From IMG/VR virus record IMGVR_UViG_3300022752_000023, positions 80,421-144,420 of that record: 64,000 nucleotides of DNA, one strand, 5' to 3'. The notes beneath the pieces were generated by a model. The model ran no database searches. It was given only the letters and a program-made list of their open reading frames with translations, and was not told where the DNA came from. The stretch's first letter is position 1; every line of letters starts with the position of its first letter. This document shows positions 12,123 through 62,580 of the stretch, piece by piece. The translations under genes were made by a program, and so were the position numbers. This stretch comes from a virus.

Positions 12123-12125
12123 GAT

Positions 12126-14324: not shown

Positions 14325-14398
14325 GGTTTTGCCGTAAAATAAATTGCATTCATACTGCGCGTGCTTGCATAATCCGCAAAATTATTACGCGGCGCGGA

Positions 14399-23106: not shown

Positions 23107-23108
23107 GA

Positions 23109-29000: not shown

Positions 29001-30766
29001 GCATGTGCTCGCGATAAATCCCGTTGCAGCTCAAAGCGTTGAGTTTTATATGCGTACCCAGCCTTCATGTATTCTTCTGTGCCGATCTGGTCCGTCATGT
29101 AAGCGCGGAATAACCGGTCATCTGCGCCGCTTTCGCGCGCCATGTTGTAGAGGCCCTGAACGCCTTGCTGCCCGGCCATCTCAGCGAGGTTAAACGTCTT
29201 ACCCTTGTATTCGTATTTGTCCTCTCCGCGTTGATATGCTTGCATCGCGGCGGCCAACTGCGTGTCTTTGTACTTATCTGGATTTTCAGACACGAGTCGA
29301 TTCATAGACGCTAGCGCGCGCCCGACAGACGAAGCGTCGCCGCGGGTAGACATAGCCGACATGCGGGCCTCGGCTTCGGCGCGGTTTAGCTTGCCAAAAC
29401 CGGGCTTTTCAAACACACCCGCGTCAGCCATGGCTTGCCCGCGCAATAGATCGCCGGCAAGCCCCTTTTCAGCTGTAACTTCCTGCAACCCCATACCGCG
29501 GGCCATGGCCTTCTTTTCGGCAGCAATGGCGTTCAAGTTTTGCAGGTCAGTATTTGTGTCGCGAGCGGCTAATCGAATTTCGCGCACTAGCGATTCAACT
29601 TTGCCGCCGCCCATACTACCCTGAGCGCCGTTTGTTAAATGTTGCAAATTAGCAATAAGTTGCTGAATCGGCGCATTTGGATTGCCATTGTCGCCAAAGA
29701 TTTCTCTGATCGCAGACACGGCGCCGTTGTATTCTTTAACGGCGCGCGACACGTTCTTTGCGTCCAGCGCGTTCGCTGCCAACCCAAAGCCGCTCATCTG
29801 CTCAATTTCTTCAGCAGATTTAGCGCGCGGATCTTTCGCTTGAAATTTATCGACTTCACTCAGTGTCGAGTCGAGGCGCTGCCGAAACGACGGGAGTTTG
29901 TCCGCCAGCATAATTTTTTGTTCTTCTTCGCTGGCGGATGCGTAAGCGGCGTCACGCGACATCAACTCCGAGTGCCCAAACTGTCTAGACAACTCGTTCA
30001 TTGTTTTGTCGTCGCGCTTAGTGCGGCTGATCGCTTTTACGCGGTCCGCTGCTGACAGCGCGCCAATGCTCTGCGGTAGGCGACCCTGCTGGAACAGAGT
30101 CTCCATCATCTCGCCGCTAGCCACCGCCCCGAACCCGTGCATTTCCCCGAGATTGGCATCTTCGCCGTACAGATTTTGATATACATTCTGCGAGAATTGC
30201 TTTAACGAGTCTGACGACATGCGCGGCCCTTGGCCGGCTGCGTCCGGTCTAAAAAAACCGATACGGTTGGTGGCCGCGGCGATCGCCGTCGGGTCGCCCC
30301 GGCGGCCAAACATAATACCTTCAAGGTTCTCGGCGCCGATCTGCGACGCGGCAAACTGTTTAAATATTGGGTTGTTTAATACGCGAGCGCCGATATTTGC
30401 ATGCTCGCGGTCTAGGTCTGTTACGGGTTGCCCGCCGTTAACAAGACGCTGCGCGCCAATTAACTTTTGCGCCACCTGCGAATTGCCGGCCATGTTCGCG
30501 GCTTCAATTGCCGCGACACCGTGACGCTGATAACGAGCGGCCGTGAACTGGTCCAGAAGGGCCTGCCCGGGCGCCTGATGCGCCAAAAACGCGTCCGGCC
30601 CGAACATGCTTTTTACCAGTCCGGGGGCGTACATGTTGGCCATATAGCCAAACGCGTCGTCTACGTGGGTGGCGTTTTGAAACGGAGAGTATACGGGCGG
30701 AGCGTATGGGTTACCCGTATAATTTTGCGTAAAGCCAGCGGCGTTTTGTGTGTGATATTGAGCCAT
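26093..30766 (-). CDS. Tape measure protein (1557 aa)
   Basis: Long Ala/Gly/Gln/Met-rich helical protein, no Cys, after chaperones and before hub. Confidence 0.8.
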   Translation of the reverse strand: MAQYHTQNAAGFTQNYTGNPYAPPVYSPFQNATHVDDAFGYMANMYAPGLVKSMFGPDAFLAHQAPGQALLDQFTAARYQRHGVAAIEAANMAGNSQVAQKLIGAQRLVNGGQPVTDLDREHANIGARVLNNPIFKQFAASQIGAENLEGIMFGRRGDPTAIAAATNRIGFFRPDAAGQGPRMSSDSLKQFSQNVYQNLYGEDANLGEMHGFGAVASGEMMETLFQQGRLPQSIGALSAADRVKAISRTKRDDKTMNELSRQFGHSELMSRDAAYASASEEEQKIMLADKLPSFRQRLDSTLSEVDKFQAKDPRAKSAEEIEQMSGFGLAANALDAKNVSRAVKEYNGAVSAIREIFGDNGNPNAPIQQLIANLQHLTNGAQGSMGGGKVESLVREIRLAARDTNTDLQNLNAIAAEKKAMARGMGLQEVTAEKGLAGDLLRGQAMADAGVFEKPGFGKLNRAEAEARMSAMSTRGDASSVGRALASMNRLVSENPDKYKDTQLAAAMQAYQRGEDKYEYKGKTFNLAEMAGQQGVQGLYNMARESGADDRLFRAYMTDQIGTEEYMKAGYAYKTQRFELQRDLSRAHAGAIVDRMGSDEFKKLKPSGMSEEDFHSRNSTLATSFATKMTGIMMDETADMTPEERVKTLEKRGKEELVRYFKSSAGGGLKGAAAERMAEQYFNAFYGANESDRRDTLLATYSETSASSQKRTGVSIEAHKQMHHQGATDEATVKEEMNKRRAARFKLAGRGTESTLAQRFGDELENLASENAGIQEGSLKRLFAIASEDSLLQSYAPDMQEGLVAAARMYTQASVTEKQIDTLADAAQKNPDGNEAKQLKIMAGVDPGKKLTADELGQLRGAAKMKSADTAAGSTDAERAKNEQQRNRAELIVRGYNTGKAEDVQVAAKAMAQQTLGAGATTAQIEKFASAALAADSTDFEKQMSAAWDGWGGLSEEKKEQARGIAQALRGSRDIGGLAGAGLEQTPVDVAKAQKRGTAATNRVASDASKNIYDALEKNYDKAEYEKLRPKGMSDSQFETQRKRRLRQISLAVSNVAVNMDDTLGKSDEDRALIMTSRMTQQLTDQFVMEGMDPETAKAEARKQLTAVLGSDKDAIVRRTNSALKIAEEAKRAHGQGVASATEKVTADQQAVLDEVGKDPTGAAFATAFADKEKRQQLLTLPAADAVKLFNKMDPAAQKTAMDQFKTALSAPPELVKKMKGLTDDDLANMRRIHAAISESKTGAGVSSQNITPEQVQQLNRSGHAPTSNQPDKPAAVTTHVQKRTDAIAEIDAELAQIEERNKNNWLDYNAEDKERKKELQTRRDAIKSQAHEQQYTVYDPYNAMGNAAGQSFSLSELRGGAVKDGVADGRPQHERVFLPYNAGYTEEQAKQDVERYGTNAEKAAFRHRGGAKKVNVTAEDGSVTQVVEKPHARMVAEQALLDANTKTPVQDMRQRLAELEKKKKKHWWIRGGGDYFDDDKDQARYNYLSDTISQYDSAQAARGMGGGGGDMNVNGTLTLHGLSEAVLAATGHRMEDTPDNGPAVDMAGGTGANYGK

Positions 30767-43061: not shown

Positions 43062-43988
43062 TCACTTGAAGTTAACGCGAGCCAGACCGTTGGTATGGCC
43101 GAACGAGCCACCCGAAGTCTGATAGGCGAAGTACTCAAGCATGTAAGCTTCACGACGGATGTACATCGTGGTGGGCTCCAGCTCGTAGTTCTTGCCGATG
43201 AACTTCGGCGACGCGAACATGAACAGCGAATCATCGGGGACAAGATCGCGCTTGATCGTGACGATCCAGCGGCAGTTGAGGAAGTTAGTCTCCGCCCAAC
43301 CGTTCTTGATGATGTCCTGCGAAAAGTCGCCGCCCATTTCGTCACGGCCGAACTTGAGGAGTTCCTTGATCGTGATGTTATTCACGAGGCAGGTTTCAAC
43401 CTCGAAGTGCGACGGCGTGCGGGGCATGACCTTCAGCGCGTCAACAAGGGTCTCACGGGTGATGCCGCCCGAGATCTCCTCGTACTGCACAACGCCGCTG
43501 GCGACGTTGGCAACACCCGGAGTCGGGAGCACGGCGTTGAAGGCGGCAATAAACTTGCCGTCCTCTTCAGCCAGCATGTCCTTGATCATGTTGTCGCTGA
43601 GGACCTGACGGATGTCGATCACGTACGTACGCAGCTCGTCGACGTCCTTCACAGCGCGGGGCGACACGATCCGGTCAAACATGACGCGGTAGCGCGGGCC
43701 ACGGATGTAGAAGTTAATCGGGAGCGTCGCAAACGGAAGCGACACAGCCGCTGGGGAATCGGGCTCCTTGTCCACAACCTTGACGGGCTTGTCAGTGTCA
43801 ACCTGACGGTCAAGCTCGTCGTTGGTGATGGTCAGCGGCGGCATAATCCGCCGGTAGAACCCGTCTTCACGCATTTTGGTGCGCGTGAAGTCGTTAACCG
43901 CGTCGATGGCCTGCTTCTGCATGCCGGGGGTGTCAAGCTGCTCAAAGAGCGTTTCGTTGAGCAGTTGGATCTCTTGCTGAGTGGGCAT
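43062..43988 (-). CDS. Major capsid protein (HK97 fold)
   Basis: R.KMREDGF.RRI.PP, DELRTY.IDIR, EEDGKFI; follows protease, scaffold and decoration; start likely MPTQQ (GGAGG SD). Confidence 0.85.
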   Translation of the reverse strand: MPTQQEIQLLNETLFEQLDTPGMQKQAIDAVNDFTRTKMREDGFYRRIMPPLTITNDELDRQVDTDKPVKVVDKEPDSPAAVSLPFATLPINFYIRGPRYRVMFDRIVSPRAVKDVDELRTYVIDIRQVLSDNMIKDMLAEEDGKFIAAFNAVLPTPGVANVASGVVQYEEISGGITRETLVDALKVMPRTPSHFEVETCLVNNITIKELLKFGRDEMGGDFSQDIIKNGWAETNFLNCRWIVTIKRDLVPDDSLFMFASPKFIGKNYELEPTTMYIRREAYMLEYFAYQTSGGSFGHTNGLARVNFK

Positions 43989-43992
43989 TTTG

Positions 43993-44008
43993 GGAACCTC
44001 CATGTTCC
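43993..44008 (-). promoter_or_regulatory. CsrA/RsmA-type hairpin on the MCP SD (GGAAC-AUGGAG-GUUCC)
   Basis: 5-bp stem, ANGGAN hexaloop. Confidence 0.65.
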
Positions 44009-48929: not shown

Positions 48930-50315
48930 TTACACCAAACCGCGAGCATGAATCTGTGATTCGAGATTGTTTTTTAACGCTTCAGCGCGAATCTTTTCCA
49001 TTTCAACAAGCTGCTTAATATCAAAATCAGCCAGCTGACCAGCTTCAAGACGCTTGCGCAGCAACGCCTGCATAGCAGCGCCAGATCCAGTGAAGTTCGG
49101 CGCAATCTCAGCGATTTGATTGTAAGCCGTTGCAATCTCGTGCGGATCGTAGCCGGAGATTACAGGGTCGTTCAAAATTAAATCGTTTAGCACGCCGCGC
49201 GATTTAATCTGCTGTAGTTTGTTCTCGTGCTCGGCATCTGACATGCGCATATACGCTTTTTGTTTTTGCGCCAGCGGATTAGTAGCTTTTTCTTCGTTAG
49301 CGCCCATCTCACTTGCGATGCCCTTGGGGCTCATGAGCTTACCGAGGTGCCCCATCGTCCCGCTGTACGATGTCAGCGGCGGAGCTGATTCCGTATCTGG
49401 TTTTTTTTTATCTTTAACCGCCGCCACCTTAAGGGCGAGCGGCGCTGTTTTCGGATCATGCAGAATAGAACCGGTAACCGTCGCGGGCGCGCTCTTTTTT
49501 TCAACAGTCGGTTGGTTTAGCGCAGCCAACTTGCTCGCGGCGTCGTTGCGCAGCTCGACGGCTTTGATCACATTTTCAACAAGCGTCACGACAGGTAGAG
49601 AACCAAAAAAGTTCTCGTTTGTGGCGGCTTGTTTTGTGAAGTGCGGATAGACGGCAGCGATCTTGTTTAATGTTGAAACGCCGATGTCGCCAAGCCGTAA
49701 CCCGACTTCGCGAACAGCGTCGGAAAACGACATGTTGCCGGGCACGCGAAAATATTGCGCCAACTCTTCCATGGCCGAAGCCGCTTTGTGGTGGGAAACT
49801 GTCGCCAGCCGCCGCACCTCGTCAGCCTCGCGACGCGTGGCCTGCTTTTCGCTATAAGCCCGCCGCGCCGCAGAGTGGTCGTCGCGCGGTGGCGGTACAT
49901 ATGTGGGCGCAGGTAGTACGCTCTTCGCGGCAGCGGCTTTGTTTAAGCTTTCATTCCGTCGGGCGATAAACCCACGCGGCGACACAGCGTACTCAGTCGA
50001 GATGATGCTGTTATTTGTTAATTCAGCAGAGGTTTTGACGTTTTTCGGATAAAGCGCATCCATGACGACGTTAACATCGGCGAGCTGGAAATCTGCGGCT
50101 TTTTCCAGCGTTGTCTCGCCCAGTTCGCGCTGCTTGTTTGTGCGTCCGGTGTTATAGGCGTGCACCATGAGATTGATGTGCCCAGCAGGAATTCCGGCGT
50201 CACTTGCGCTTTTGATAATAGCGGCGTTTGGCGTAGACCCGTCGTTGACCAGAGTGGCCGCACGCTCAATTGCGCTCAGCAATTTTTGCTCAGCTTCTTT
50301 ACTTAATGCCCGCAT
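48930..50315 (-). CDS. Head-internal protein with many K-x-A motifs
   Basis: More than 10 K-x-A sites, no Cys. Confidence 0.75.
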   Translation of the reverse strand: MRALSKEAEQKLLSAIERAATLVNDGSTPNAAIIKSASDAGIPAGHINLMVHAYNTGRTNKQRELGETTLEKAADFQLADVNVVMDALYPKNVKTSAELTNNSIISTEYAVSPRGFIARRNESLNKAAAAKSVLPAPTYVPPPRDDHSAARRAYSEKQATRREADEVRRLATVSHHKAASAMEELAQYFRVPGNMSFSDAVREVGLRLGDIGVSTLNKIAAVYPHFTKQAATNENFFGSLPVVTLVENVIKAVELRNDAASKLAALNQPTVEKKSAPATVTGSILHDPKTAPLALKVAAVKDKKKPDTESAPPLTSYSGTMGHLGKLMSPKGIASEMGANEEKATNPLAQKQKAYMRMSDAEHENKLQQIKSRGVLNDLILNDPVISGYDPHEIATAYNQIAEIAPNFTGSGAAMQALLRKRLEAGQLADFDIKQLVEMEKIRAEALKNNLESQIHARGLV

Positions 50316-51246
50316 CGGTTTTCTCCGGGTAGTGCAGTTCTTGAATCAGCCCTTGATGCTGCAAAGAACCGCCAGCCGCAATAATCATCATTTCGTCGTT
50401 ACGTAATTCTGCAGCGCCGTCATCAAAGGGTAACATTTTTATGGCTGCGGAATCTAGTTTTGTCCCCACTTTGAACGGTAATGTCGCCAGCATCGCGCCA
50501 ATGTTTTCAACAATAGTGGCCTGCGATTTAGTGGCGTTATCGCTGTTTTTCTCGATCTCTACATATTTTACAAAAGAATCGATCAGCGGTAACTGGGTGT
50601 GGCTGTTGACGGGCACGGTAAGGCTGGCAATGGCGGCCTTGTACTTCATCGAGTTCACAGCAAAATCTTGGAAAAACCCTGACACACCCGCGGCAGAATC
50701 AGGCTTCGGCATTTCAAGGCAACGGTTAATCGCAGCGTCGAGTACGTACTGGCCGCCGCGATATCCCAATAGTTTCCACAACAGGTCGTAGTGGCGTTCT
50801 TGTAGTCCGCGCGTTACAGCATCTGCCATTATAACGTTAACGACATAGTCCCTGTTAACCAGCTTCTCGCGCACATCAAAAAAGGTGTTGGCGTACGCCG
50901 CAATAGTCTCAACCTCTGTGCCGAGCTTATCCGCAATTTCTTGGTCAGACTCGCCGGCAAGAATGCGCGCTTCGATAGCCCACCGCGTTGGTTGCTTGTC
51001 GGCCGCCCATATAGAGTGCGCCCAGAACATGGCGCTGTCGCGAAGCAACGCGCCGTACAACGCGTTGGGGTCGTTATTCGCCTGCTCAAAGTGTCGCTTT
51101 AATCGCAGCGCGCGGCGAATCCACACAAAACCTTCTGCGCCGTCTAGCGCGCGCGACGCTTTACGCCCGCCGCTATCAATCTGAACAGCGCGCAACCAGC
51201 GCCAATTTGGCGGGCGCAGCGGGTTAGTGCGGAACGCGTTCAACAT
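50299..51246 (-). CDS. Hypothetical protein with possible HTH
   Basis: IEARILAGESDQEIADKLGTEVETIAAY. Confidence 0.65.
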   Translation of the reverse strand: MLNAFRTNPLRPPNWRWLRAVQIDSGGRKASRALDGAEGFVWIRRALRLKRHFEQANNDPNALYGALLRDSAMFWAHSIWAADKQPTRWAIEARILAGESDQEIADKLGTEVETIAAYANTFFDVREKLVNRDYVVNVIMADAVTRGLQERHYDLLWKLLGYRGGQYVLDAAINRCLEMPKPDSAAGVSGFFQDFAVNSMKYKAAIASLTVPVNSHTQLPLIDSFVKYVEIEKNSDNATKSQATIVENIGAMLATLPFKVGTKLDSAAIKMLPFDDGAAELRNDEMMIIAAGGSLQHQGLIQELHYPEKTDAGIK

Positions 51247-51629
51247 TAGCGCAGCGTCGGCGTGTCGACGGTAACGGAAAAGACCAGCGTCTTCGTGGCG
51301 GACGGCGTAATCTTCAGATACAGATATCTTTGCGGATTTGTCGGCGTACCGTCGCGGTTCAAGTACGAAACGTCTAGGTTATTTGTAAACGGCGTCGTCT
51401 GGTCAAACGATAAGACTTTGAACGTATCGGCTGGCAACTCGCTGTTTGGCGCCTTATCCTGCTTGCTAGAGTAAAGCGTTGCTGTGAAGTTGCCGGTCGC
51501 ACCGCCCGACGCCTCAACGAGACTGTAACCCTTGAGAATGCCGCGATGCGGCATAGGCACCGCGACCGTTGTGGCCGTGCCGCTGTTGGCTGTAAATGTA
51601 ACGCTACCGGACCATACTGTGCTGGGCAT
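51246..51629 (-). CDS. Small beta-rich virion protein (hypothetical)
   Basis: Thr/Ser-rich, AAGGTG SD. Confidence 0.7.
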   Translation of the reverse strand: MPSTVWSGSVTFTANSGTATTVAVPMPHRGILKGYSLVEASGGATGNFTATLYSSKQDKAPNSELPADTFKVLSFDQTTPFTNNLDVSYLNRDGTPTNPQRYLYLKITPSATKTLVFSVTVDTPTLR

Positions 51630-51638
51630 ATTTCACCT

Positions 51639-54020
51639 TTAGGCGTTAGCGATAGCGCCAAGATCGATATCCTGCGCGGCTTCTTCGGGATACGGCTCGA
51701 TGGTCTTCTGCTTGAGGAACAGAATGACGTCGCCCAGCATTTCAAACGCATTGCGCAGCGAGTCTTCTAATTCCGGCATATCAGCTTTGCCGTAACGTTC
51801 GGCAAACCGGTCACCGTGCCAATAGAACATAAACAAGATGCGGCCTAGTTTATCGAGGCCCTTGGTCAGCTCGCCCATGTAACGATCGACCAGCGAGTCG
51901 TCTCGCACGGCGCGCAGCATGGCGCCCACCATTGCCGTGTCGAACACTTCGCGCTGCCCACTCTGCGCGGCGTCGATGACAGAGCGAACGTCGCGCTGAT
52001 CGAGAAGCGTGTTGGGGTTGTACACGCTGCGGTCAGTTTGGCTGGCGCTCATGCCCGGCACCTGTACAGCGGTGTCGATACCGAGCTGTGTCGGGACGCT
52101 TGTGCCCATGATGCTCTCGCCGCCCATAACCGGACCCGGATCTGTGGGCGCCGACGGGGCGCCGTTGATCATCATCGGACCGCCGTACGGATCGGCATAC
52201 TTAACGCGGCACTCAAACTTGCGCTTGGCGGCCGCTTGCTTCAGGATCTCGCGCGCTGCTTCTTCGCGCAGCCCGTGATGTTCAACAAGCGTTACAAGCG
52301 CTTTGATCGGGCTGAGTCCGGCTTCTTTGTTAATAGTTACCGATGTGCCGTTGTGGTAAACGGTTAGCGCGGCGGTTTTTTGCATAAGTGCCAGCTGTGC
52401 GTCGACGAGGTTACCGGGCTGCAGGGCTGGCGGATCACTCTCGCCGCATCCACAAGCGCCTTGATCTTCGGCCGCCTCGGCGTCGTCTTCGCCCTTGGTG
52501 ACCTTGAGCAGCTTGAAACCTTCTGGCACAAAGATGTCGCCCATGCTCGCGCGCAGGCTGGCGCCCTTCTTGCCGTTCAAGTGAATACGCACGCCGTCGC
52601 GCCATTTGTCGTAGTTCAACGGGTCGGTGTAGCAGCACGCGCCAATCGAACCCTTGGGCGGATACTTCGAATGGTCTTCAAGATGCACCTCATAGACTGT
52701 GCTGCCGTTGCTGTCGCCATACTCTTTGATCACGCGAAACGGCGCTGTCGTGTCGCCACGTTTGCTGAGCGCAATGTATCGCGCGTCTTTGCTCGGCACA
52801 CTATTGGCTTCTGGCAAGCCGTCGAACCACTTGTCAAATTCCTCGCCCCCGATTCGGGCCAGAGCAAAAACTTGGTCGGCACGAGTGTTGAGCCAGTTAC
52901 GGGCCCCATCAACGCGCACCACAGTGATAAAGTTTTCGCGTTTGGCGGCGCCTTGCGGGTGTACAGCGACGTAGCAGCGCTCGATGTTGCCCGGCTTGAC
53001 GAGGATTTCGTACAAGCCGCTTTCAGTCGGGTTGAATAGCTTTTTCTCGACCTGAATGTGATACGGGATGGAGACATTGTCGCGATCGCGCTCGTCTTGA
53101 ATTAGAACGCCGTCGCGCAGTAGCTTCTCCTGATCTTCTTCGCTGTAACCGACAGGAGCTTTAGTTTGCACCGTCACGTCGTACGTAATTACTTTAAGGC
53201 CCTTTGCCGCAGCGGGTTCTTTCGGGGCTTCGGATAGCACACTGGCAATTTTTGTGTTGGCCGCGTCTTCACGAAACTTCGCCATGACCATCGCTTCGCG
53301 CACCACGTCCAGCCCGTGAAACTCGTCGATGGCTTTGGCCAGCTGCGGCGCGTGTTGGCACGTTTTAATCAACGTGGCAATTACTTCCAGCCCGGCTTGC
53401 TTTAAAAAGGTCGGCAGGTCTAGCGCTGCGCCGATTTCCTTAAAAGTTTGCGCGGTGTTTAGCGTGGCGCTCTTGGCGAGAGCCGGCATTGCCGCCGTCA
53501 TCATTTCCTTGAGCGTGGGCTGCGCCGAACCAAACTTAGCCGGGCTGCGCGAAAGCTGCGTGAAGTCGGGCTGGCGTTGCCCCATATTCGATAGGTTGCG
53601 CTCGACGCCGCTGCCCAGAATGTTGGGTTTGCGGTTAATGAGGTAATTGATCCAATTTTCCTTGAGCGGCACGAACATGTCCTGATTTTTGATATACAGG
53701 AGTTCGTGACCCTTGAGGTCGCCGTTGAGAAAAAACACCGGCGCGTACAGCCAGTTGGAACCAACCTTGAACGCGAAAACGCCGACCGCTTTGGTGTTTT
53801 CTCGGTTGCGATCGAGCAGCTGGAAGCCGATTTCGTGATCTAGCAGCTTGGGGGCCGAATCGCGCAGGTAGGCGTGCGCCAGATTGCTAAACGACTGCTC
53901 AAAAGAGGTGTCGTCGCCCTTGCCGCCTAAATCGGCATATTTGGTCTGAGTGCGGTCATACGACTTCAGCACATTCAGCCAATGCTTAACAGACGACTCT
54001 TTCGCTTTTTTGTTGTACAC
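51639..54020 (-). CDS. Large head-associated protein with K-x-A motifs
   Basis: Likely GTG start at 54020 (GGAGG SD); KYAD twice, KSAT, KQAG, KIAS, KTAA, KQAA. Confidence 0.75.
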   Translation of the reverse strand: MYNKKAKESSVKHWLNVLKSYDRTQTKYADLGGKGDDTSFEQSFSNLAHAYLRDSAPKLLDHEIGFQLLDRNRENTKAVGVFAFKVGSNWLYAPVFFLNGDLKGHELLYIKNQDMFVPLKENWINYLINRKPNILGSGVERNLSNMGQRQPDFTQLSRSPAKFGSAQPTLKEMMTAAMPALAKSATLNTAQTFKEIGAALDLPTFLKQAGLEVIATLIKTCQHAPQLAKAIDEFHGLDVVREAMVMAKFREDAANTKIASVLSEAPKEPAAAKGLKVITYDVTVQTKAPVGYSEEDQEKLLRDGVLIQDERDRDNVSIPYHIQVEKKLFNPTESGLYEILVKPGNIERCYVAVHPQGAAKRENFITVVRVDGARNWLNTRADQVFALARIGGEEFDKWFDGLPEANSVPSKDARYIALSKRGDTTAPFRVIKEYGDSNGSTVYEVHLEDHSKYPPKGSIGACCYTDPLNYDKWRDGVRIHLNGKKGASLRASMGDIFVPEGFKLLKVTKGEDDAEAAEDQGACGCGESDPPALQPGNLVDAQLALMQKTAALTVYHNGTSVTINKEAGLSPIKALVTLVEHHGLREEAAREILKQAAAKRKFECRVKYADPYGGPMMINGAPSAPTDPGPVMGGESIMGTSVPTQLGIDTAVQVPGMSASQTDRSVYNPNTLLDQRDVRSVIDAAQSGQREVFDTAMVGAMLRAVRDDSLVDRYMGELTKGLDKLGRILFMFYWHGDRFAERYGKADMPELEDSLRNAFEMLGDVILFLKQKTIEPYPEEAAQDIDLGAIANA

Positions 54021-54101
54021 GGCCAGCCTCCATGCTGCGCTCAAAATTAGGGGCAATATTAATTTACTGCCCCGAAGTCCTTATATCCTACAAAAACGGG
54101 T

Positions 54102-55982
54102 TCAAGGCTTCCACCCGCTTGTTGCGCCCGTTACGCCAAATTGTTCGCCTTGCGCTAGCGCCGGCACATAACTGCTGCCTGCTGTGTCGCTACTTAAACC
54201 GCGCTGAACGCTATTCATAAGCCCTTTTTCTTGATATGAACCCAGCATTCGGGTCATCCAGTCGGGGTCGTTTGAAATGTTTGCCATACCCCGCACCATC
54301 TCCGGCTGAAACGGCGGCGGTTCTTTATGCGCTTGAATTGTTTTAACGCCATATTTGTTTAAGTTTGTCAGCACGTTTTTACCGATCTTTGTGCCGATTG
54401 AATAGTGCAACACGGGTTTTTCTAAATAGTGCCCGGTTAACGTGTTTGGCGCGGCCGATACGCTACCTTCTCGCGGCGTCCAATTACGCTCAATAGCGGA
54501 GTAAGGCACTACGTCGTCAGGCACGTAATCGCCGTATTCGTCGGTCAGGCGTACATGATTTACAAGTCCGCGCGCCAGTAGTTCGATGTTGCGGCGATGG
54601 GCTGTAATACCGCTGTTACCCATGACCTGCCGCATAGCTTGCACAAAATAACGACGTCCTTCGCCTACGCCTTTGTGCCGGACAATTTCTGCTGGATTTG
54701 GCATACCCTCCGATATAACGTCACCAGCTTCAAGCTCATCGCCCTTTTTGACCGAAAGATTTCTCTCTGTCGGAACGTAGTGGTCCTGACCGTTAATCTG
54801 CACATAGTGGCCGCCCTGCGGAGCCGGACGAACTTCCTGCACACGGCCGTCTAGCTGCGCGTGCACGGCGCCGTCTGGGTATTTCTTCGGGACCTGTACA
54901 AGCGCGTTGAGCGCTTTAAAACCCGAAATCGCTCCCGCGCCGCCGACACCGCCAGAGTGCTTCGAGCTGATCTGGCTTTGCGTGACTGGTTCCGACAGCG
55001 CCTGTGCTGCCGCGATACCCACATAATCTCCAACAGGCGGTAAACGCCCCTTTTCCCTGTAACCCACATCTTTCGCATAAACACCGCCGTCCCCGGGGCC
55101 GCCAACAATCGGGCTGCGAACTAAGATATCTTTGGCGCCACTTTCCTTCAGATCCCGAAGTATCTTGGGCGTCAAAATTGTGTTGCGTTTATATGGCCCG
55201 ACGGCGCGCGCTAATAACGCGCCCTCGTTATCCGGGTCGTCTACGTCGGTTGGGTACCCGCGCTCTTCTAGCGCGGCGCGGCGCTCTTCGTCGGTGTCGT
55301 CGTCATCATCCGCGGTAACCAACAGCCGATGCGTCATCTGCGCCAACTGTTTACCATAGAAACCAGCGTCAGCCGTTGCGGTTTTAAGATCAATTACGCC
55401 CTTACGTGTTCCGAATGCGCCGGCAAAATACTCTACCGGCCGCAAGCCTTGGCTGTATCCGCGCAATACCGGAATTGGAATTGGATCGCCGCGATGGTCG
55501 AGATACTGCATGTCGGCGCCAAGAATTGAGTTCAGCTGAAATTTGTTGCCGACCCCAGAGCCGGCAATCTGGTGCGCCAGCGGATTGTCCTGCCCCTCGG
55601 CCTCCTTGTACACCTTGTCGAGCAGTTCTTGTTGCGCAGCCTGCGCCAGTTCAAGCAATTTAATATTGCGCTGTTTTTCATCGAGCCGTTTGTCGGCAAA
55701 AATGTCGCGCATTTGATTCTGTACGCGCAACTGAACGTGCCGCGCCGCTAGCGTCGGACGAATATCTTTGAGTCCAAACGATAAACCGTTCGTCGTGTAA
55801 CCGGCATCACGACCAATGTCGTGAAGCCGCTTCATCACGTCACGATATTTTTCTGGGTGGTTTTTTGCCAAATCGGTGGCGACGTTTGACATCGTTTTTT
55901 TAGTTAATACGCGATCATAGTCGCGCATTTCGGGCGGCAACGCTTCATTAATCAAAAGTTGTCCAAGCGTCGTCTTTAGCAT
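54102..55982 (-). CDS. rpoC: DNA-directed RNA polymerase beta' subunit, C-terminal part
   Basis: TTLGQLL.N, GL.PVEYF....GTRKG..D....TADAG (bridge helix), G.YVGI.AAQALSEP.TQ....KH.GG (trigger loop), V.KGD..EAGD.ISEG. Confidence 0.93.
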   Translation of the reverse strand: MLKTTLGQLLINEALPPEMRDYDRVLTKKTMSNVATDLAKNHPEKYRDVMKRLHDIGRDAGYTTNGLSFGLKDIRPTLAARHVQLRVQNQMRDIFADKRLDEKQRNIKLLELAQAAQQELLDKVYKEAEGQDNPLAHQIAGSGVGNKFQLNSILGADMQYLDHRGDPIPIPVLRGYSQGLRPVEYFAGAFGTRKGVIDLKTATADAGFYGKQLAQMTHRLLVTADDDDDTDEERRAALEERGYPTDVDDPDNEGALLARAVGPYKRNTILTPKILRDLKESGAKDILVRSPIVGGPGDGGVYAKDVGYREKGRLPPVGDYVGIAAAQALSEPVTQSQISSKHSGGVGGAGAISGFKALNALVQVPKKYPDGAVHAQLDGRVQEVRPAPQGGHYVQINGQDHYVPTERNLSVKKGDELEAGDVISEGMPNPAEIVRHKGVGEGRRYFVQAMRQVMGNSGITAHRRNIELLARGLVNHVRLTDEYGDYVPDDVVPYSAIERNWTPREGSVSAAPNTLTGHYLEKPVLHYSIGTKIGKNVLTNLNKYGVKTIQAHKEPPPFQPEMVRGMANISNDPDWMTRMLGSYQEKGLMNSVQRGLSSDTAGSSYVPALAQGEQFGVTGATSGWKP

Positions 55983-55983
55983 G

Positions 55984-56223
55984 TCACGGCGTCCACATTA
56001 TTTTCTGCATCGACTTCGGCTGAAACTCTGACACAACAACCGTTTTGTCGACACCCAGCGCGCGTAAAAGCGAATGAAACTCCTTTTCGCCGACTGTCGC
56101 ATAAACAACAGCTTCGTCAACCTGAATAGCAACAAATAGCGGATTGCCGAGATCGTCTTCGACAATCACGCTATGTGCTTTTTTTTCGGTCGGCTGCAGG
56201 CTGTGTTGCGTTTTAACCAGCAT
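55984..56223 (-). CDS. Hypothetical protein (79 aa) between the RNAP parts
   Basis: Packed ORF, overlaps upstream gene. Confidence 0.65.
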   Translation of the reverse strand: MLVKTQHSLQPTEKKAHSVIVEDDLGNPLFVAIQVDEAVVYATVGEKEFHSLLRALGVDKTVVVSEFQPKSMQKIMWTP

Positions 56224-56941
56224 TGTCCGCTATGCTCCGAATCATCGCGGCGATAGCGTTTGCTTTAATCTGCATTTGTGTCGGCGCGTTCGGATTAGAG
56301 ACGCTGGGACCAAACGGCCGGCCGATTGAAGAAGCCGATTTTTCAGCGCGATCCCACCACGCGGCCTTCGACGGATCAGCCTCGGGTGGCGGAGCGTTCG
56401 GCGGCATTGGTCCGCCCGGAGGCATTGGTCCGCCCGGCGGTTGCATTCCACCCTGCGCGTTCGGGTCTTGCGGCGGCGGCGCCATCGGGCCGCCGGGAAG
56501 CGCTGTTTCAGCCGGCGGCGCGCCAGTCGTACCGGGGGGTAACACCAGAGACTCCGGCGGCACCTGAACACCCATCGCGTTCATGATGGCGGTAAGTTGC
56601 TGCTGCATGTTGTACAAACGATAGTCGAGCATTTGCATCATTTGCTCGGGTTTAAGTTTTTGCTGCGCGCCAGCAGGGGCTGCGCCCGGAGCGGCGGGTG
56701 CGGCGGGCGCTGCGGGAGGTGCAGCGGGAGGCGCCATTCCCATAGCCGCAGGATCCACTGGCGGTGCAGCTGCTGCAGCAACAGCAGACGGATCGGCCGG
56801 CGGAACAGCCCCCATGGCGGCTGGATCAACCGGCGGAGCACCACCAGCAGCAGCGGGATCCACCGCCGCTCCGGGCACTAATGCGGATTTTTCAAAGCGC
56901 GCCTTCGCCAGCGCAATGAGTTCGGGGTTTACCGTGAACAT
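56213..56941 (-). CDS. Pro/Ala-rich low-complexity protein between the RNAP parts
   Basis: GGAGG SD; PPVDPAAMG repeats, central helix, EKSA twice. Confidence 0.8.
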   Translation of the reverse strand: MFTVNPELIALAKARFEKSALVPGAAVDPAAAGGAPPVDPAAMGAVPPADPSAVAAAAAPPVDPAAMGMAPPAAPPAAPAAPAAPGAAPAGAQQKLKPEQMMQMLDYRLYNMQQQLTAIMNAMGVQVPPESLVLPPGTTGAPPAETALPGGPMAPPPQDPNAQGGMQPPGGPMPPGGPMPPNAPPPEADPSKAAWWDRAEKSASSIGRPFGPSVSNPNAPTQMQIKANAIAAMIRSIADNAG

Positions 56942-56961
56942 ACAACCTCCATGTTTAACGC

Positions 56962-59900
56962 TTACGTATTATCTTCCACAATATGAACCGGGGTGTCCAC
57001 CTCTATTTCGCCGCGGCGGTATGCCTGTACAGCGTCCTGCTTGCTACGAAACACACGTGGTTTGGCTTTTTTACTAATCCGGCTAGACGCTAAGTATAAC
57101 CCGGTTTGGTAGTCTTTGTTAGGAACGTAGTGCGCGCGAAACGTCGATGTCGCGAACAAATTCTTGCTCGGCAGCATTTTTTCAACGGCTTCTTTCGCGG
57201 CGTCTTCTGTGCTTGGAACGTGATACTGCATCGCATCACCGTCAAAGTCGGCGCCAAACCCTTTGGTGATTACAGGGTTCACTTCCATGACTTTGTTTTT
57301 AGTTAACTTGGGATAGAAAGCCATCATACCGTAGCGATGAAGTACCGGGGCGCGGTTGATAACAATCGGCCGCGACGACATCTGCTGATTTAACTCAGCA
57401 AACGCTTCTTTGTTTTTATCTTCAACGGCCTGCATAGCTTGCATGCGCGGAAGGCCGCGGCGAACAAGCCCCCGAACAACGAACGGCTTGTAAATATCCC
57501 ACGCTTTCTCTTCTGGCAGCGCAACTTCATCCATATCAAGGTCGGGATTTGGTGTAATGACGGCGCGACCGACAAGGTCTACCGTCGAACTGAGCAGCTT
57601 GCGCTGAACAGTGCCGTATTTTGGCGAGTTACCAAACACGTGGCGTAGAAAACCTTTGACGTTGCGCTCGACGTTTTTAGGCTGCTGCGGCTCACCCAAT
57701 CCGGTAACAGCCTTCATCGAGTCATACATGCTCAGCCGTTCGTCGCCGTAGTCGGCTAGCGCGCCAGAAGCTTCTTTCAGCGTATCGTTAGCGTCGAGCA
57801 ATTCTTTGTACAGATAATTTGCGTCGGCCACGAGAGGTAACTTTTTACTGCCCATTGTGCTCACGGGCCTGAAGAGCGGCGGTAGCACCGGGACTTTACT
57901 AATCATCCAGTCCTTGGGGTGCACACCAGTTGTTTCAGCGCTCTTTAAGAAACCAAGCCGACGCACAGCAGCGTCGCGCAGCGTTTTACGCCCGGATTTA
58001 ATATCTAAACGCGCCTGCTCGATCGCCTTCGGCAAATTAATGCGTTCCAGCGCGTTTTTGATCGCGATCGGACCTGTTTTGTCGCCCAGCTGTTCGCGCC
58101 CAGCAAGGACGCCGCGAAACTGCTTTTCCGTTAAGCCCAGCACGCGGCGAATCGGGTCTTCCATAACTGGATTCGGCATCGGCTCATGTAGCGTGATCTT
58201 GCTCCACCGATTACCGCCGTGGCCGCCGGTAAGTGTTTCGTCAAACAGGCCACCCGCGATGGGTTTAAGCCGTCCCTTCCAGTCTACGGTCTCGGAACTC
58301 TTCAGCTCTCGCGGGCCGGCCAGTTCATCCACGTCTTTATCGGTCATCGCCATCAGGTTTGAACGCGTGCCCTTTCGCACGACGTTGATGCCAGACGCTT
58401 TTAACTGAGTGACAAACTTCTCATAAACGTGCGGCACTTTGGGTAGCGGCGGAGTGTAACCAGCCATGAACTGCGACCAGTACTCGGGGTTGGCTTGTCC
58501 GCGCACCATCTTGGCGTCGCGAATAACTTTGCCCGCGCCGTGCGACAGCAGCGCGCCGAGATCTAACATGCCGATTCGCTTTGCGCCTTCGCTGCCGCCC
58601 TTTGCCGGCGTGCCTTCGGCGGTATACGCGCCCATTGACCGGCCTTGGGCTTTCGACTCGCTGGTGTGATGCAACTTCATAAAAAAACGATTACCGGTGA
58701 GCACGCCGCCAATTTTTCGCCCGGTCTCTGGGTCGATAACGTCTTCGGTGTCTGACAAACCGTGCTTCGCGAGTTCTTTCTGCGCAAACTCAATCAGATC
58801 GTTTTTGTTATCAAAGTCTTTAAGCTTGTATGGCGAACCAGTTTTCGCGGCGACTTTGCCCAGCGCGGCTTCAATCACTTGCGCCGGGTTAATACGACTG
58901 ATCAGACCTAACGGCGAAACAAGCACTTCAAAAGGATTGCCGTCGCGATCTTTGGGCATCTGATCGTCGGGAACAATCTCGGCGACGACGCCCTTGTCTC
59001 CAAAACGCCCGGTGAGCTTGTCGCCAACGTCCATGGGGGACTGATTCTTCACCACAACGCTCACACCCTTTTTGGTGTGCATAACGTCAGTCACGATACC
59101 GGGCGCGTGGTGATCCCACGTAATAGTTTCATTGGTGAAGTTGCCGGCACGACCACGATGAACTTTGCCGTATACGGTGTCTTTCTTTTTAGCTACCAAT
59201 ACGAGCGGATCGCCAAATTTGACTTCGGTGCCTTTTTTAATTGCTCCGTTGTCGTCAAAGTTATCGAGATACTTTTTATCGTACTCTGCGGGAAACAAAC
59301 TCACGAACGCCTTCTTGCCAACGTGAGTGTTGTCGTCCCACTCGGCTTCGTGCTGATACATGTGCTCAGACGTCAACCGTTTGGAGGCAGATTCAGAAAT
59401 AACAACCGCGTCTTCGTAGTTCTTGCCGCGAAAGGGCAGGTAAGCCGTACGCAAGTTCAACCCCAACGCCGCGCTACCGTTTTGGTCAGTAAAGTTGGAC
59501 CGAGCCAAAAGCTGTCCCGGCTCAACGACATCGCCCGGTTTAACAAGCGGCGTCTGATGTAAAAACGTTTTGCGGTTGTACGGCATCTCGTTGTATAAAT
59601 CGATCGTCTTCTTATTGCCGTCTTTGTCGCGCAGCACAATACCGTCTGGCGTCACATCGACGACTTGCGCGCGTTCGGTCGCGCGAGTCGCGCCCAACTT
59701 CTCGCCCATCTCGTCTTCGTGCGAAACTTTGTCGTCATCGGCTTTAGCAGACTGCAGCAGCGGCGCCTCGGCGTTTACGAGTGGCAACGCCTGCGTAAAC
59801 ATTCGGCTACCCATGATCACGCGATGACCCTTGATCATCGATTTGATGGGCACCATGTTGGTCAGCGCAGAGAACGTGCTATCCATGTTCGGCAAACCAA

Positions 59901-61365
59901 ATTGCGCTTCTTTTCGCGGCACATACTTTAATTTGCCGTTTACGAGCGCTGCGACAACCGGTAGGTCGTTGTCTTCTTCACCCGGAAACACAAGCGGCGT
60001 ATCGGCCAGTTCTTGCGGCGTCTTATACACTTTCTCGCCGGTTTTCATATCGACAACTGGCGTATAGACCTTGCCGTCAGCGCCCTTCATAGCGCCACGA
60101 GCAAAGCGCATATCGACACCCACTTTGCCCGATTCCGGCGTGCGCAAGTAGTCAATAAACCCAAGATGGCTCGGCTGCACAGAACGCGACTCAGCCGGCA
60201 CTGCGTCGAGCGAGCCAATCCCGCCCTCGCCCATGCGCGTAACACGAGTCTGGTGGTCAAAGATTTCGGCTGGATTGATCTCTTCTAAACTCGATCCCAG
60301 CCCGCTGCCTATAAGCGCCGCAGAAATCGCCTTGTCAAACACACCAGACGGAATGTGATCGATCGACTTCTTCGCCGTGGCTTTCCACAGAAGTTTGTTT
60401 AACCCTTGCCGGTCTTTAATAAACCTTTCAGCAATCAGGTCTTCGGGGCCGACGACTGACTGATACACCATGTTGTCGCGGTCGTCGCTCTCGGCCTCGC
60501 GGCGATTCACGGCAATCAACTTCTTCGTAATCGCCAGAATCGTTTCCGGCGTCATGTTCTTGTATTCGGCGCCAAGCGTACGGCGTGTGACTTCCGGGTC
60601 CAATTCGGTCTTGGCAAACTCAGCGGCAATGGCCTGCGCTTTCGCGATGGCGTCCGCGCCAGCGACGGGTTTGTTTACGAGACGCGCATAGATCTTGTCC
60701 ATCGTGCCGGCGTCGCCCTTCTCCATGTTGACGGCGGTAATCTCGTTGCCCCACGCCGAACGAATGTCCTGATCGGAAACACCCATGGATTTGAGCAGCG
60801 GCATGAGCGGGATCTGTGCCTGCCCGATGCTGATCTTGAAAACGCCGGTCTTTGGGTCGAGAAAGTACCGGTGCGATCGGCCTTTCCCCGGAAGCGTGTT
60901 TACGTGCGCTTCGATCTCGCCGTTATCTTTCTCGCGGGTAAACACGCCCGGACGTAAGCGCATCTGGTGCGCGAGAGTGTACTCTACGCCGCCGTTCACA
61001 AACGTGCCGGAGTCGGTGAGATACGGCACGTGGGCGATCGTGGCGCGGCGCTGACCGACGGATTGGCCGGTTTTGTTATCAACGAGCGTCCACGTTCCCT
61101 GCAGCCGCCGGGCAAGTGTCCCCCGGGAGAGGACGGCTTTCTTTTGATCTGCCCGTGTAAAACGTTCAGGTCCGGTGTACCCGACGTCTTGAAGCTGCAG
61201 CGTATACAGATCGTTCTGCAGCGGTTTTAAACTTTGCGCGCTGGTCAGCGCTTGGTTAAAAATGTTGTCGCGCATCGTGCCAACGTCGCCAAACGTGCGC
61301 ATTGTCGGCGCAACGGGTGCGGAAAGCGGCGCGGGCGCTTTAAGCGGCGGTAACTCGGGGGTCAT
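56962..61365 (-). CDS. rpoBC: DNA-directed RNA polymerase beta fused to the N-terminal part of beta' (1467 aa)
   Basis: beta: GTFVNGG, TPESGKVG, NYEDA, GDKLTGRFGDKGV, MKLHH; then beta': GGLFD, PVLPP.FRP, GRAVI, NRAPVLH, catalytic ADFDGD. Confidence 0.95.
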   Translation of the reverse strand: MTPELPPLKAPAPLSAPVAPTMRTFGDVGTMRDNIFNQALTSAQSLKPLQNDLYTLQLQDVGYTGPERFTRADQKKAVLSRGTLARRLQGTWTLVDNKTGQSVGQRRATIAHVPYLTDSGTFVNGGVEYTLAHQMRLRPGVFTREKDNGEIEAHVNTLPGKGRSHRYFLDPKTGVFKISIGQAQIPLMPLLKSMGVSDQDIRSAWGNEITAVNMEKGDAGTMDKIYARLVNKPVAGADAIAKAQAIAAEFAKTELDPEVTRRTLGAEYKNMTPETILAITKKLIAVNRREAESDDRDNMVYQSVVGPEDLIAERFIKDRQGLNKLLWKATAKKSIDHIPSGVFDKAISAALIGSGLGSSLEEINPAEIFDHQTRVTRMGEGGIGSLDAVPAESRSVQPSHLGFIDYLRTPESGKVGVDMRFARGAMKGADGKVYTPVVDMKTGEKVYKTPQELADTPLVFPGEEDNDLPVVAALVNGKLKYVPRKEAQFGLPNMDSTFSALTNMVPIKSMIKGHRVIMGSRMFTQALPLVNAEAPLLQSAKADDDKVSHEDEMGEKLGATRATERAQVVDVTPDGIVLRDKDGNKKTIDLYNEMPYNRKTFLHQTPLVKPGDVVEPGQLLARSNFTDQNGSAALGLNLRTAYLPFRGKNYEDAVVISESASKRLTSEHMYQHEAEWDDNTHVGKKAFVSLFPAEYDKKYLDNFDDNGAIKKGTEVKFGDPLVLVAKKKDTVYGKVHRGRAGNFTNETITWDHHAPGIVTDVMHTKKGVSVVVKNQSPMDVGDKLTGRFGDKGVVAEIVPDDQMPKDRDGNPFEVLVSPLGLISRINPAQVIEAALGKVAAKTGSPYKLKDFDNKNDLIEFAQKELAKHGLSDTEDVIDPETGRKIGGVLTGNRFFMKLHHTSESKAQGRSMGAYTAEGTPAKGGSEGAKRIGMLDLGALLSHGAGKVIRDAKMVRGQANPEYWSQFMAGYTPPLPKVPHVYEKFVTQLKASGINVVRKGTRSNLMAMTDKDVDELAGPRELKSSETVDWKGRLKPIAGGLFDETLTGGHGGNRWSKITLHEPMPNPVMEDPIRRVLGLTEKQFRGVLAGREQLGDKTGPIAIKNALERINLPKAIEQARLDIKSGRKTLRDAAVRRLGFLKSAETTGVHPKDWMISKVPVLPPLFRPVSTMGSKKLPLVADANYLYKELLDANDTLKEASGALADYGDERLSMYDSMKAVTGLGEPQQPKNVERNVKGFLRHVFGNSPKYGTVQRKLLSSTVDLVGRAVITPNPDLDMDEVALPEEKAWDIYKPFVVRGLVRRGLPRMQAMQAVEDKNKEAFAELNQQMSSRPIVINRAPVLHRYGMMAFYPKLTKNKVMEVNPVITKGFGADFDGDAMQYHVPSTEDAAKEAVEKMLPSKNLFATSTFRAHYVPNKDYQTGLYLASSRISKKAKPRVFRSKQDAVQAYRRGEIEVDTPVHIVEDNT

Positions 61366-61368
61366 GGC

Positions 61369-62220
61369 TCACCCCGCTTGCGACTGCGCGGCCTGCTGCT
61401 TCAACGCAATAATCTCGTCGGGGTCGACGTACGTAGGCAGAATGCCGGCAATGCGCGCCTTCGATTTCGCAGCCTCTTCCACGGCTTTGGCGCGCGACCG
61501 ATCACGAGCACGGTCGTACATCAGCTTGGCGGCCAGCCCGCCCAGACCAAGTCCCGCGCCAACATACGCGCCGCCGACTGTGGCCGGAACTCGTTTGGCG
61601 ATGTCATACGCGTCGGTCAGCCACTCTAGCAGCGCCTTCTTTTCTGACGCGGCTTTTTCACTTGCGGCGTCGTATGCGCTGTCTAACTTTTTGCCCCCGC
61701 CACCAGTGAGCGCGTCGTAATACTCTTTTTCAGCCGCGGCAATCTGATCTTGCTGCTCACGCCGCTTTTTTCTCTTGTGAAGTGCTTCAATAAGCTTGTA
61801 CCCGCCGAGACCGCCCAAAGCCGCGGCGCCAAATGTCGCACCTGTTCCGAATGACGACCGTAGAATGTTCGGGTCGTAGGAGTTTGGGTTTTTGTTTGTA
61901 GCTGGCGTGAACGGCCGCAAAAAACTTACCCACGTGTCCGGCAGCATTTTGCCGACACCCTCAGTGATGTTGTCGTAAATGCCGGCCGCTTTTGTTTCAG
62001 TAATCTTTGGCGTCTCTTCTTCCTCTTCTTCTTTTGGCTTATTTAACGCCTGAGATAACCCGCGGGCCAAATAATAAAGACTAGCAGCACCAGCGCCAGC
62101 GCCAAGCCCACCAAGACCAGTACGGATAATACGATCGCCCCAAAAACGCTGGTAGTCTTGGGCTGTAGGCGCGCCCACAGGGGCAGTTGGCAGCACGGCA
62201 TTGTTGGCTCGTTTATCCAT
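61369..62220 (-). CDS. Glycine-zipper head-internal (candidate ejection) protein
   Basis: Three Gly-rich hydrophobic segments; KAAG/KAAS sites; no Cys. Confidence 0.75.
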   Translation of the reverse strand: MDKRANNAVLPTAPVGAPTAQDYQRFWGDRIIRTGLGGLGAGAGAASLYYLARGLSQALNKPKEEEEEETPKITETKAAGIYDNITEGVGKMLPDTWVSFLRPFTPATNKNPNSYDPNILRSSFGTGATFGAAALGGLGGYKLIEALHKRKKRREQQDQIAAAEKEYYDALTGGGGKKLDSAYDAASEKAASEKKALLEWLTDAYDIAKRVPATVGGAYVGAGLGLGGLAAKLMYDRARDRSRAKAVEEAAKSKARIAGILPTYVDPDEIIALKQQAAQSQAG

Positions 62221-62232
62221 TGTTTGTGCTCA

Positions 62233-62580
62233 CTAATGTTTGGGCGGAATCATGCCGTACACCTGCGCCCACTCCAACCAGACCCGAAAATGTTTATGTT
62301 CGTCGTCCCAGTTGTCCGTGCGCTTTAACAGCCGATACCAGCCGTTCACCATCTTATCATTTATATCGTCAAATTCTGCCTTCTGAGTAGGATCCCACAG
62401 CTCGAACATACGAGACTTGAAATCATACTGTAAATCTATATTTTCCAGCTCATCTTGCTTCAGATCGGGGCGGTGACCCGCGCCAATTACCGGAAAGCCG
62501 TCGAGCGTGCCGGGCCAGTTCAATCGGGCGTTATTGTGCTGCGTGCCGCCAATTTCGCCGTGATACTTGCGAAGGCTCAC
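62233..62580 (-). CDS. Hypothetical protein (115 aa)
   Basis: Packed ORF. Confidence 0.7.
   Translation of the reverse strand: MSLRKYHGEIGGTQHNNARLNWPGTLDGFPVIGAGHRPDLKQDELENIDLQYDFKSRMFELWDPTQKAEFDDINDKMVNGWYRLLKRTDNWDDEHKHFRVWLEWAQVYGMIPPKH

Follow-up and report, generated by a model that had tools for sequence, protein, structure and literature searches.

A candidate virion-packaged RNA polymerase of bacterial type, free of cysteine and zinc sites, in an uncultured tailed phage

Three kinds of virion RNA polymerase (RNAP) are established in phages: the single-subunit enzyme of the N4 type, the multi-piece enzyme of the phiKZ/AR9 type and the crAss-type enzyme. Here we analyze an RNAP encoded by a 64-kb stretch of phage DNA (hereafter the window), which corresponds to positions 80421-144420, i.e. 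the last 64 kb, of the IMG/VR contig IMGVR_UViG_3300022752_000023 (144,420 bp, completeness estimate 71%). The source is an uncultured, myovirus-like, tailed phage of ~205 kb. An earlier note on this DNA had proposed that its two RNAP chains, in which no cysteine (Cys) was seen, form a bacterial-type enzyme that is packaged in the virion and ejected into the host for early transcription.

That note gave the N4 virion RNAP (vRNAP) as Cys-free, and a direct count confirmed it: gp50 has no Cys in 3500 residues, and the ejection partners gp51 and gp52 have none either (0/644 and 0/150, respectively). Suppression of Cys across the ejection operon of the Schitoviridae has been tied to passage through the periplasm (DEV study, PMC11445570). 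The phiKZ-type phages lack a sigma factor and other jumbo phages lack an RNAP altogether, according to reviews (PMC7824862, PMC13282480). The mReC phages of Weinheimer & Aylward (2020) are environmental tailed phages with beta and beta' subunits detectable with cellular COG models; their description makes no mention of a fusion, sigma, inteins, virions or Cys (PMC7481178). The closest cultured relative of the window phage is Salmonella phage Arash (genome OQ632216), whose virion proteins were analyzed by mass spectrometry coupled to liquid chromatography (LC-MS) in a report without analysis of RNAP architecture, Cys content or zinc sites (PMC10585845).

The two RNAP chains, their cysteine content and their zinc sites

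The longer chain, of 1467 amino acids (aa), fuses a complete beta to the N-terminal catalytic half of beta' (beta'-N). Its Pfam domains are Rpb2_6 (E 4e-50) and Rpb2_3 (E 6e-5), followed by Rpb1_1 and Rpb1_2 (E 4e-24); among PDB sequences it is matched best by bacterial beta (E 2e-68) and by residues ~142-560 of bacterial beta'. The shorter chain (626 aa) is the C-terminal half of beta' (beta'-C); it aligns to residues 664-1184 of Mycobacterium beta', and in this alignment the trigger-loop segment is present with its His kept. The catalytic, Mg-binding loop of the fusion, in the double-psi barrel of beta', reads GADFDGD, and the three aspartates (D1373, D1375 and D1377) were invariant in 19/19 diverse sequences. 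Judged by these sequences, the enzyme is a bacterial-type beta/beta' multisubunit RNAP in two chains. No homologue of alpha or omega was found in the RNAP block, the rest of the genome not being searched, and the enzyme could use the alpha of its host. A second RNAP set, in the fashion of phiKZ, was not found on the contig or in five complete relatives (205-226 kb, CheckV 100%). Each of these relatives has a single beta' catalytic locus, hence one RNAP set, and one clear sigma gene; a search for a T7-like RNAP, which had no positive control, gave no match in the five genomes.

Neither chain contains a Cys (0 in 1467 aa and 0 in 626 aa), as the earlier note had claimed. Given a genome-wide content of 1.41% (615/43,653 residues in 155 called genes), the chance of finding none in 2093 aa is 1.3e-13, consistent with the value of about 1e-9 at 1% Cys that the note had put forward. 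The two genes belong to a run of six consecutive Cys-free genes (2812 aa, P = 5e-18), the other four of which encode proteins of 115, 283, 242 and 79 aa (Table 1). Where the window chains have none, 7 Cys are found in the beta and 15 in the beta' of Salmonella, and a replication enzyme of the same genome has a normal content (16 Cys in a 1053-aa polymerase-containing open reading frame (ORF)).

The Cys content of homologues, which the note had named as a check, is not ordinary either. No Cys is present in 108 of the 120 homologues closest to the fusion (at least 76% identity), and versions of ~1800 aa in this set have an insert of ~350 aa that carries 11-13 Cys. From a HMMER search of 1.84 billion cluster representatives we used 150 representatives at 44-60% identity. 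The residues that align to the window protein contained 0.082% Cys (180/220,545) vs. 2.15% (1847/85,971) in the inserts, which are inteins; mature and intein portions were separated by BLAST coverage, and part of the 180 'mature' Cys may be boundary residues. The inserts of two of three proteins tested matched the Intein_splicing, LAGLIDADG and homing-endonuclease families, and wherever junctions were clearly resolved the intein ended in HN or GN and the +1 residue was Ser or Thr, never Cys. Inteins leave before the protein matures and so serve as a built-in control: the gene can carry Cys, but the finished enzyme excludes it. The fusion gene is also an intein hotspot, with 1-5 inserts of 150-550 aa in most of the 150 representatives, recurrently after window residues 411, 599 and 784 (homologues P0121-P0270, e.g. 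P0156 of 3350 aa and P0163 of 3089 aa). Five inserts within one RNAP gene is unusual.

We also counted Cys gene by gene in 80 related IMG/VR loci at 41-97% identity (Table 1). Because each gene was started where its longest ORF begins, a small number of N-terminal Cys in these counts are spurious (e.g. in loci L008, L037 and L059). Both RNAP genes and the four small genes of the block were depleted of Cys throughout these loci, in contrast to the next gene downstream and the three genes upstream. The pattern among homologous sequences indicates that the depletion is gene-specific and conserved, and that it is maintained by purifying selection rather than being a product of chance.

The two structural zinc sites of beta', a hallmark of bacterial RNAP, are absent from the window enzyme. 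Throughout the family the zinc-ribbon loop (~32 residues, with C70, C72, C85 and C88) is deleted: in an alignment with Salmonella beta' it was missing from the window protein, from Arash and from five diverse representatives. At the second site (Salmonella C814, C888, C895 and C898), all four positions are occupied by residues other than Cys in the window beta'-C and in most relatives. All four Cys are retained in Arash gp216, in Vibrio phage D69 and in the environmental locus L082, and the beta'-C of each has no Cys besides them. In a quick FastTree of beta'-C, rooted on Salmonella and read for topology only, the three zinc-retaining lineages were basal. Loss of the second site would therefore be derived, and it was apparently lost once.

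Virion data from a relative and the genes around the RNAP

Both RNAP chains have counterparts in Arash, gp206 for the fusion (33% identity over 96%) and gp216 for beta'-C. The virion RNAP that the earlier note expected has been seen in this relative only. By LC-MS, gp206 was the most-detected protein of the Arash virion (128 unique peptides, 3516 spectra), and gp216 gave 40 unique peptides and 1210 spectra (PMC10585845). The helicase gp217 (38 unique peptides, 1148 spectra), gp218 (36 and 1149, respectively) and the sigma factor gp10 (24 and 467, respectively) were also detected, vs. 2 unique peptides for ligase, primase and other helicases; the second sigma, gp196, was not listed (PMC10585845). 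The replication enzymes with 2-3 peptides are likely carry-over. No homologue of gp196 or of gp217 was found on the 144-kb contig; both may lie in the missing ~60 kb.

The RNAP genes lie within, and are co-oriented with, the virion morphogenesis genes. About nine tenths of the 155 genes in our own call of the whole contig are on the minus strand, as are all ORFs of the RNAP block, and a tightly packed same-strand run (gaps of 1-45 nt) extends from 63813 past the capsid gene. The order RNAP, gp218-like gene, gp222-like gene and capsid gene is common to the window phage and Arash, and from the capsid gene the RNAP block is seen to open the morphogenesis run. The claimed location in the structural run was borne out, the RNAP genes lying directly upstream of the homologues of the Arash virion proteins gp218 and gp222 and the capsid gene; the immediate neighbours, head-internal proteins in the note's account, gave no family matches. 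In two relatives with terminal repeats, which in IMG/VR are not necessarily physical genome ends, the coding strand reads from replication genes through RNAP and head genes to a tail module with sigma, and the RNAP genes lie 50-65% of the way along this one coding strand, behind the replication genes. Transcription must therefore be started by an enzyme made before, or by that of the host. As a speculation, a layout running in one direction would be well matched to a transcription-coupled entry of DNA like that of T7 and N4.

The sigma-70-family gene is found among the baseplate and tail genes. Its product matches Pfam Sigma70_r3 at 38 bits (cut-off 25.3) and region 4 weakly, at 19.5 bits, below the cut-off; no match to Sigma70_r2 was found in the genome at E <= 0.1. 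The protein is homologous to the annotated Arash sigma gp10 (phmmer E 1e-19), which likewise has no Cys, and its orthologues in the five complete relatives have 0, 0, 0, 1 and 2 Cys, all encoded among baseplate genes. Arash gp10 also lies in the tail operon, after the large cell-wall hydrolase gp8. The absence of Cys from sigma, from the 1557-aa protein and from the Gly-zipper-like 283-aa protein, which the earlier note had also reported, proved correct in each case. The 1557-aa protein is a putative tape measure by its size and its position between the sheath region and the baseplate genes; it has no Pfam match, and three orthologues have no Cys. Distal tail and fibre proteins (3340-8700 and 10392-15340, minus strand) are Cys-rich, as the note had said of the external tail proteins, with 71 Cys in 1786 aa (3340-8700) and 2.7-3.8% in three others (3.8% at 14399-15340), which suggests disulfide-stabilised external parts.

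Two small genes separate the RNAP genes. The 242-aa protein is 23% Ala and 20% Pro (43% together), consists largely of APPxDP / GAPPxDPAAM repeats with one conserved helix, and is conserved in 47 related loci; it has no Pfam or PHROG family and may be a flexible tether or spacer. We rejected a role as alpha subunit for this Pro/Ala-rich repeat protein. The 79-aa protein, encoded in 49/80 related loci, is beta-rich, its AlphaFold model having five strands and one helix at a predicted local distance difference test score (pLDDT) of 87. The omega subunit, by comparison, is helical, and neither omega nor another known role was assigned, as no Foldseek match to the PDB fell below E 0.8 and no PDB profile match below E 0.2.

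Directly upstream of the fusion gene, after a 3-nt gap, lies the gene for the 283-aa protein, in which charged helices lie between three zipper-like segments rich in Gly and Ala. This protein does not look alpha-like and is a candidate membrane-inserting ejection protein. A dodecin-like fold for the 115-aa protein was seen with weak similarity only (E 0.07, template modelling (TM) score 0.3-0.46) and was not used. Downstream of beta'-C, the 805-aa protein has an ordinary Cys content and marks the end of the Cys-free block; the ESM Atlas gave no match for it. A hairpin in the gap between these two genes overlaps the start codon of the 805-aa gene and is a possible terminator, attenuator or translational element. 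The number of sites in a promoter and terminator scan of the region did not exceed the shuffled-sequence expectation, and transcription units were not definable from it. Three further head-module proteins (461, 315 and 127 aa) gave no family matches; their orthologues contain 0.18%, 0.42% and 0.06% Cys, respectively, and they are candidates for further packaged or ejected proteins. Pfam and PHROG scans of 30 neighbouring proteins yielded only a match for the sheath and a single PHROG family without assigned function, and the capsid protein had no Pfam match at E <= 0.1.

In relative L003, two further genes belong to the same-strand run that lies upstream of its RNAP block, in a region past the end of the window contig: one for a 275-aa protein with PG_binding_1 and Peptidase_M10 domains (L003:4428-5255, ~5 kb upstream of the fusion gene) and one for a 612-aa NUDIX/2H-SAK protein.

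Table 1. Features of the window and their cysteine content (Arash matches by phmmer)
Feature	Coordinates	Strand	Length (aa)	Cys	Cys in orthologues (80 related loci)	Evidence and position
Sigma-70-family protein	22285..23139	-	284	0		Among baseplate/tail genes; homologue of Arash gp10
Putative tape measure	26093..30766	-	1557	0		Size and position
Sheath						Arash gp236, E 1.2e-36
Major capsid protein	43062..44003	-				Arash gp226, E 2e-35
485-aa protein			485			Arash gp222, E 6e-30
Three Cys-depleted head-module proteins	48930..51629	-	461, 315, 127	0, 1, 0
805-aa protein	51639..54056	-	805	7	0.99%	Directly downstream of beta'-C; Arash gp218, E 1.7e-9
9-bp hairpin (GGGGCAGTA...TATTGCCCC)	54050..54073	-				Terminator-like scan; in 45-nt gap after beta'-C stop codon
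RNAP beta' C-terminal half with trigger-loop region (beta'-C)	54102..55982	-	626	0	0.05%; 53/62 without Cys	Pfam Rpb1_5, E 7e-24; Arash gp216, E 1.5e-50
Small beta-rich protein	55984..56223	-	79	0	0.38%	Between RNAP genes
Pro/Ala-rich protein	56213..56941	-	242	0	0.10%	Between RNAP genes; alignment, composition
RNAP beta fused to beta' N-terminal catalytic half	56962..61365	-	1467	0	0.11%, inteins included	Pfam and PDB sequence matches; Arash gp206, E 5e-238
Gly/Ala-rich zipper-like protein	61369..62220	-	283	0	0.08%; 33/39 without Cys	Zipper-like segments, charged helices between
Conserved protein	62233..62580	-	115	0	0.31%	Alignment; model pLDDT 79
Three genes upstream of the block					0.9-4.4%

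Packaging and ejection weighed against other explanations

On its testable predictions, the interpretation of the earlier note is supported, and we consider it probable that the RNAP is packaged in the virion and ejected into the host with the DNA. From the data above we infer packaging in the window phage, ejection, early transcription, a cause for the loss of Cys and independence from alpha, along the following lines. The enzyme would be made with the head proteins, put into the capsid and delivered to the host together with the DNA, where, with a co-packaged sigma, it would transcribe the first phage genes without the RNAP of the host. The chains would cross the tail and the cell envelope unfolded or partly folded, and later refold without a cofactor. 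Selection would act against Cys because of the risk of oxidation and mis-pairing in the periplasm and in the stored virion, and against zinc sites because an unfolded chain cannot carry the cofactor. Under this pressure of tail passage and storage, the zinc ribbon would have been deleted, the second site replaced and the other Cys purged. The beta/beta'-N fusion places both catalytic barrels on one chain and may permit assembly without an alpha dimer.

The main competing explanation, which we regard as rather unlikely, is that of an ordinary intracellular RNAP in a programme started by the host RNAP, in which case the Arash signal would stem from carry-over of an enzyme made in great abundance, and the loss of Cys and zinc would answer some other pressure, e.g. 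low zinc or a need to withstand oxidative or thiol-reactive stress inside infected freshwater hosts. Carry-over is indeed one of the two readings offered by the Arash authors, the other being a role in early transcription, and their preparation, with 116 proteins including clearly non-structural enzymes, was not clean (PMC10585845). However, the RNAP chains gave 128 and 40 unique peptides, vs. 2-3 for the contaminating enzymes, and the RNAP genes lie in the head module in two lineages of only 33% identity. The RNAP, sigma, the putative tape measure and a handful of head-module proteins are not the set that a general cellular stress would pick, and the replication enzymes of the same genome have a normal Cys content. 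That the single RNAP set must work inside the cell in any case, and that the phiKZ virion RNAP retains Cys, are both in keeping with an intracellular enzyme.

We think it improbable that the protein is packaged without serving as an injected transcriptase, i.e. as an internal scaffold, for DNA organisation or as a particle-retained component whose Cys were lost to oxidising storage only. In Arash the spectral counts are very high, which suggests that many copies are present, as is more typical for internal structural proteins. In phiKZ, gp181 (a tail-associated endolysin), which we take to be the tape measure, and the head proteins gp89 and gp90, which we take to be inner-body proteins, are nearly Cys-free; gp89 and gp90 offer a parallel that fits such a role. 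The strict conservation of the catalytic elements (the invariant DFDGD aspartates and the trigger-loop His) and the matching sigma, which is co-conserved and co-detected in Arash virions, point instead to a working polymerase, and a role as mere filler is unlikely for an enzyme that purifying selection keeps intact in thousands of genomes. Chance or genome composition as the cause of the missing Cys has next to no probability: some other proteins of the genome also lack Cys, and nothing further speaks for it, but P is ~1e-13 and the depletion is kept down to 41-60% identity while inteins carry 2.15% Cys.

Several observations nevertheless count against packaging and ejection, in addition to the authors' carry-over reading and the composition of the Arash preparation, which included ribonucleotide reductase and ligase. 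The nearest relative with virion data shares 33% identity, and the window phage is known from its genes alone. Arash and Vibrio D69 retain one zinc site with its four Cys. The phiKZ virion RNAP subunits contain 0.61% Cys vs. 1.13% in the non-virion subunits (gp123 not included), a mild depletion, so that Cys loss is no general rule for injected multisubunit RNAPs. The portal gene, which in Arash and Vibrio D69 lies directly upstream of the fusion gene, is not adjacent in the window phage: its homologue (E 2e-69 to Arash gp204) is at contig positions 4234-6156, outside the window and far from the RNAP/capsid module. Neither a capsid-targeting sequence nor a site for the prohead protease was identified, and the genes upstream of and between the RNAP genes have no recognisable function by Pfam or PHROG family matches. 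Lastly, since each genome has a single RNAP set, later transcription must fall to this enzyme as well, and its features would then not be shaped solely by packaging.

The enzyme would offer a natural minimal RNAP (two chains, no zinc, no Cys) in which assembly, the unfolding and refolding of the chains and the use of sigma could be studied. Its family is large, with 2715 cluster representatives at E <= 1e-30 (probably including cellular RNAPs) and at least 553 confirmed loci in IMG/VR, and many large phages of fresh and marine waters may therefore infect independently of host RNAP. More tentatively, and with somewhat less than even confidence, we suggest that a large, global family of ~200-kb tailed phages carries a capsid-borne, sigma-dependent RNAP that is threaded through the tail and serves as sole polymerase throughout the cycle. 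If so, this would be the first injected sigma-dependent holoenzyme, and natural proof that a cellular-type RNAP folds and works without zinc, Cys, alpha or omega. The difference between the Cys-free mature protein and its Cys-rich inteins also shows that ejected proteins can be predicted from sequence alone by their depletion of Cys; in the window this predictor additionally flags sigma, the putative tape measure and several head-module proteins.

Comparison with known virion and cellular RNAPs

The closest sequence matches of both window chains are bacterial beta and beta'. Cellular RNAPs have been re-cut naturally, in the gamma/beta' split of cyanobacteria and in beta-beta' fusions, and the match of the cyanobacterial gamma subunit (8h3v, 625 aa) up to residue 558 places the split of the window beta' near the gamma/beta' junction. 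The window enzyme differs from bacterial RNAP in joining beta to only half of beta', in the loss of both zinc sites and in having no Cys.

The resemblance to N4 lies in the gene neighbourhood and composition: the N4 vRNAP is encoded beside small ejection proteins, all Cys-free, and the window has its Cys-free Gly-zipper-like gene immediately upstream of the fusion gene. The N4 enzyme itself differs in being a single-subunit, T7-like, non-homologous 3500-aa polyprotein of a podovirus, which uses hairpin promoters without sigma. With phiKZ and AR9 the window phage would share a beta/beta'-related enzyme with re-cut subunits, packaged in a large myovirus head and active in early transcription (PMC7598289, PMC7824862). 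The phiKZ enzyme differs in having 4-5 split subunits and a second, non-virion set, and its similarity to the window RNAP is weaker (PHROG E 1e-5 to 7e-28 vs. 3e-62 for the closest family).

Membership of the window phage in the mReC group is doubtful, judged by gene layout and capsid family. On an mReC contig from the supplement of PMC7481178, beta (~1134 aa) and beta' (~909 aa) are separate and far apart, and the mReC capsid proteins match T4 gp23 (PF07068), in contrast to the window capsid protein, which lacks a Pfam match.

Arash is much closer, having the same layout of two chains with a beta/beta'-N fusion of 1525 aa and a beta'-C of 606 aa. The group of Arash and Vibrio D69, D148 and D181 resembles the window phage in its deleted zinc ribbon and in a sigma gene inside the tail module. 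The Arash-type fusion has 1-2 Cys and sigma gp10 none, a near-total depletion as in the window. Unlike in the window phage, the two RNAP genes of Arash lie ~5 kb apart with opposite-strand genes between them.

The earlier note knew of no description of a Cys-free, sigma-paired virion arrangement. This stands in part: a virion RNAP with sigma had already been reported briefly for Arash, and our literature search found no paper analyzing a two-chain, zinc- and Cys-free RNAP, virion presence being mentioned only in the Arash paper. In view of this search, we see in the enzyme a new form of virion RNAP, of bacterial type, sigma-paired, zinc- and Cys-free, and with predicted packaging. A beta/beta' plus sigma virion RNAP would be a fourth kind beside the three established ones, the nearest of them to cellular RNAP and comparable with the enzymology of the E. 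coli polymerase.

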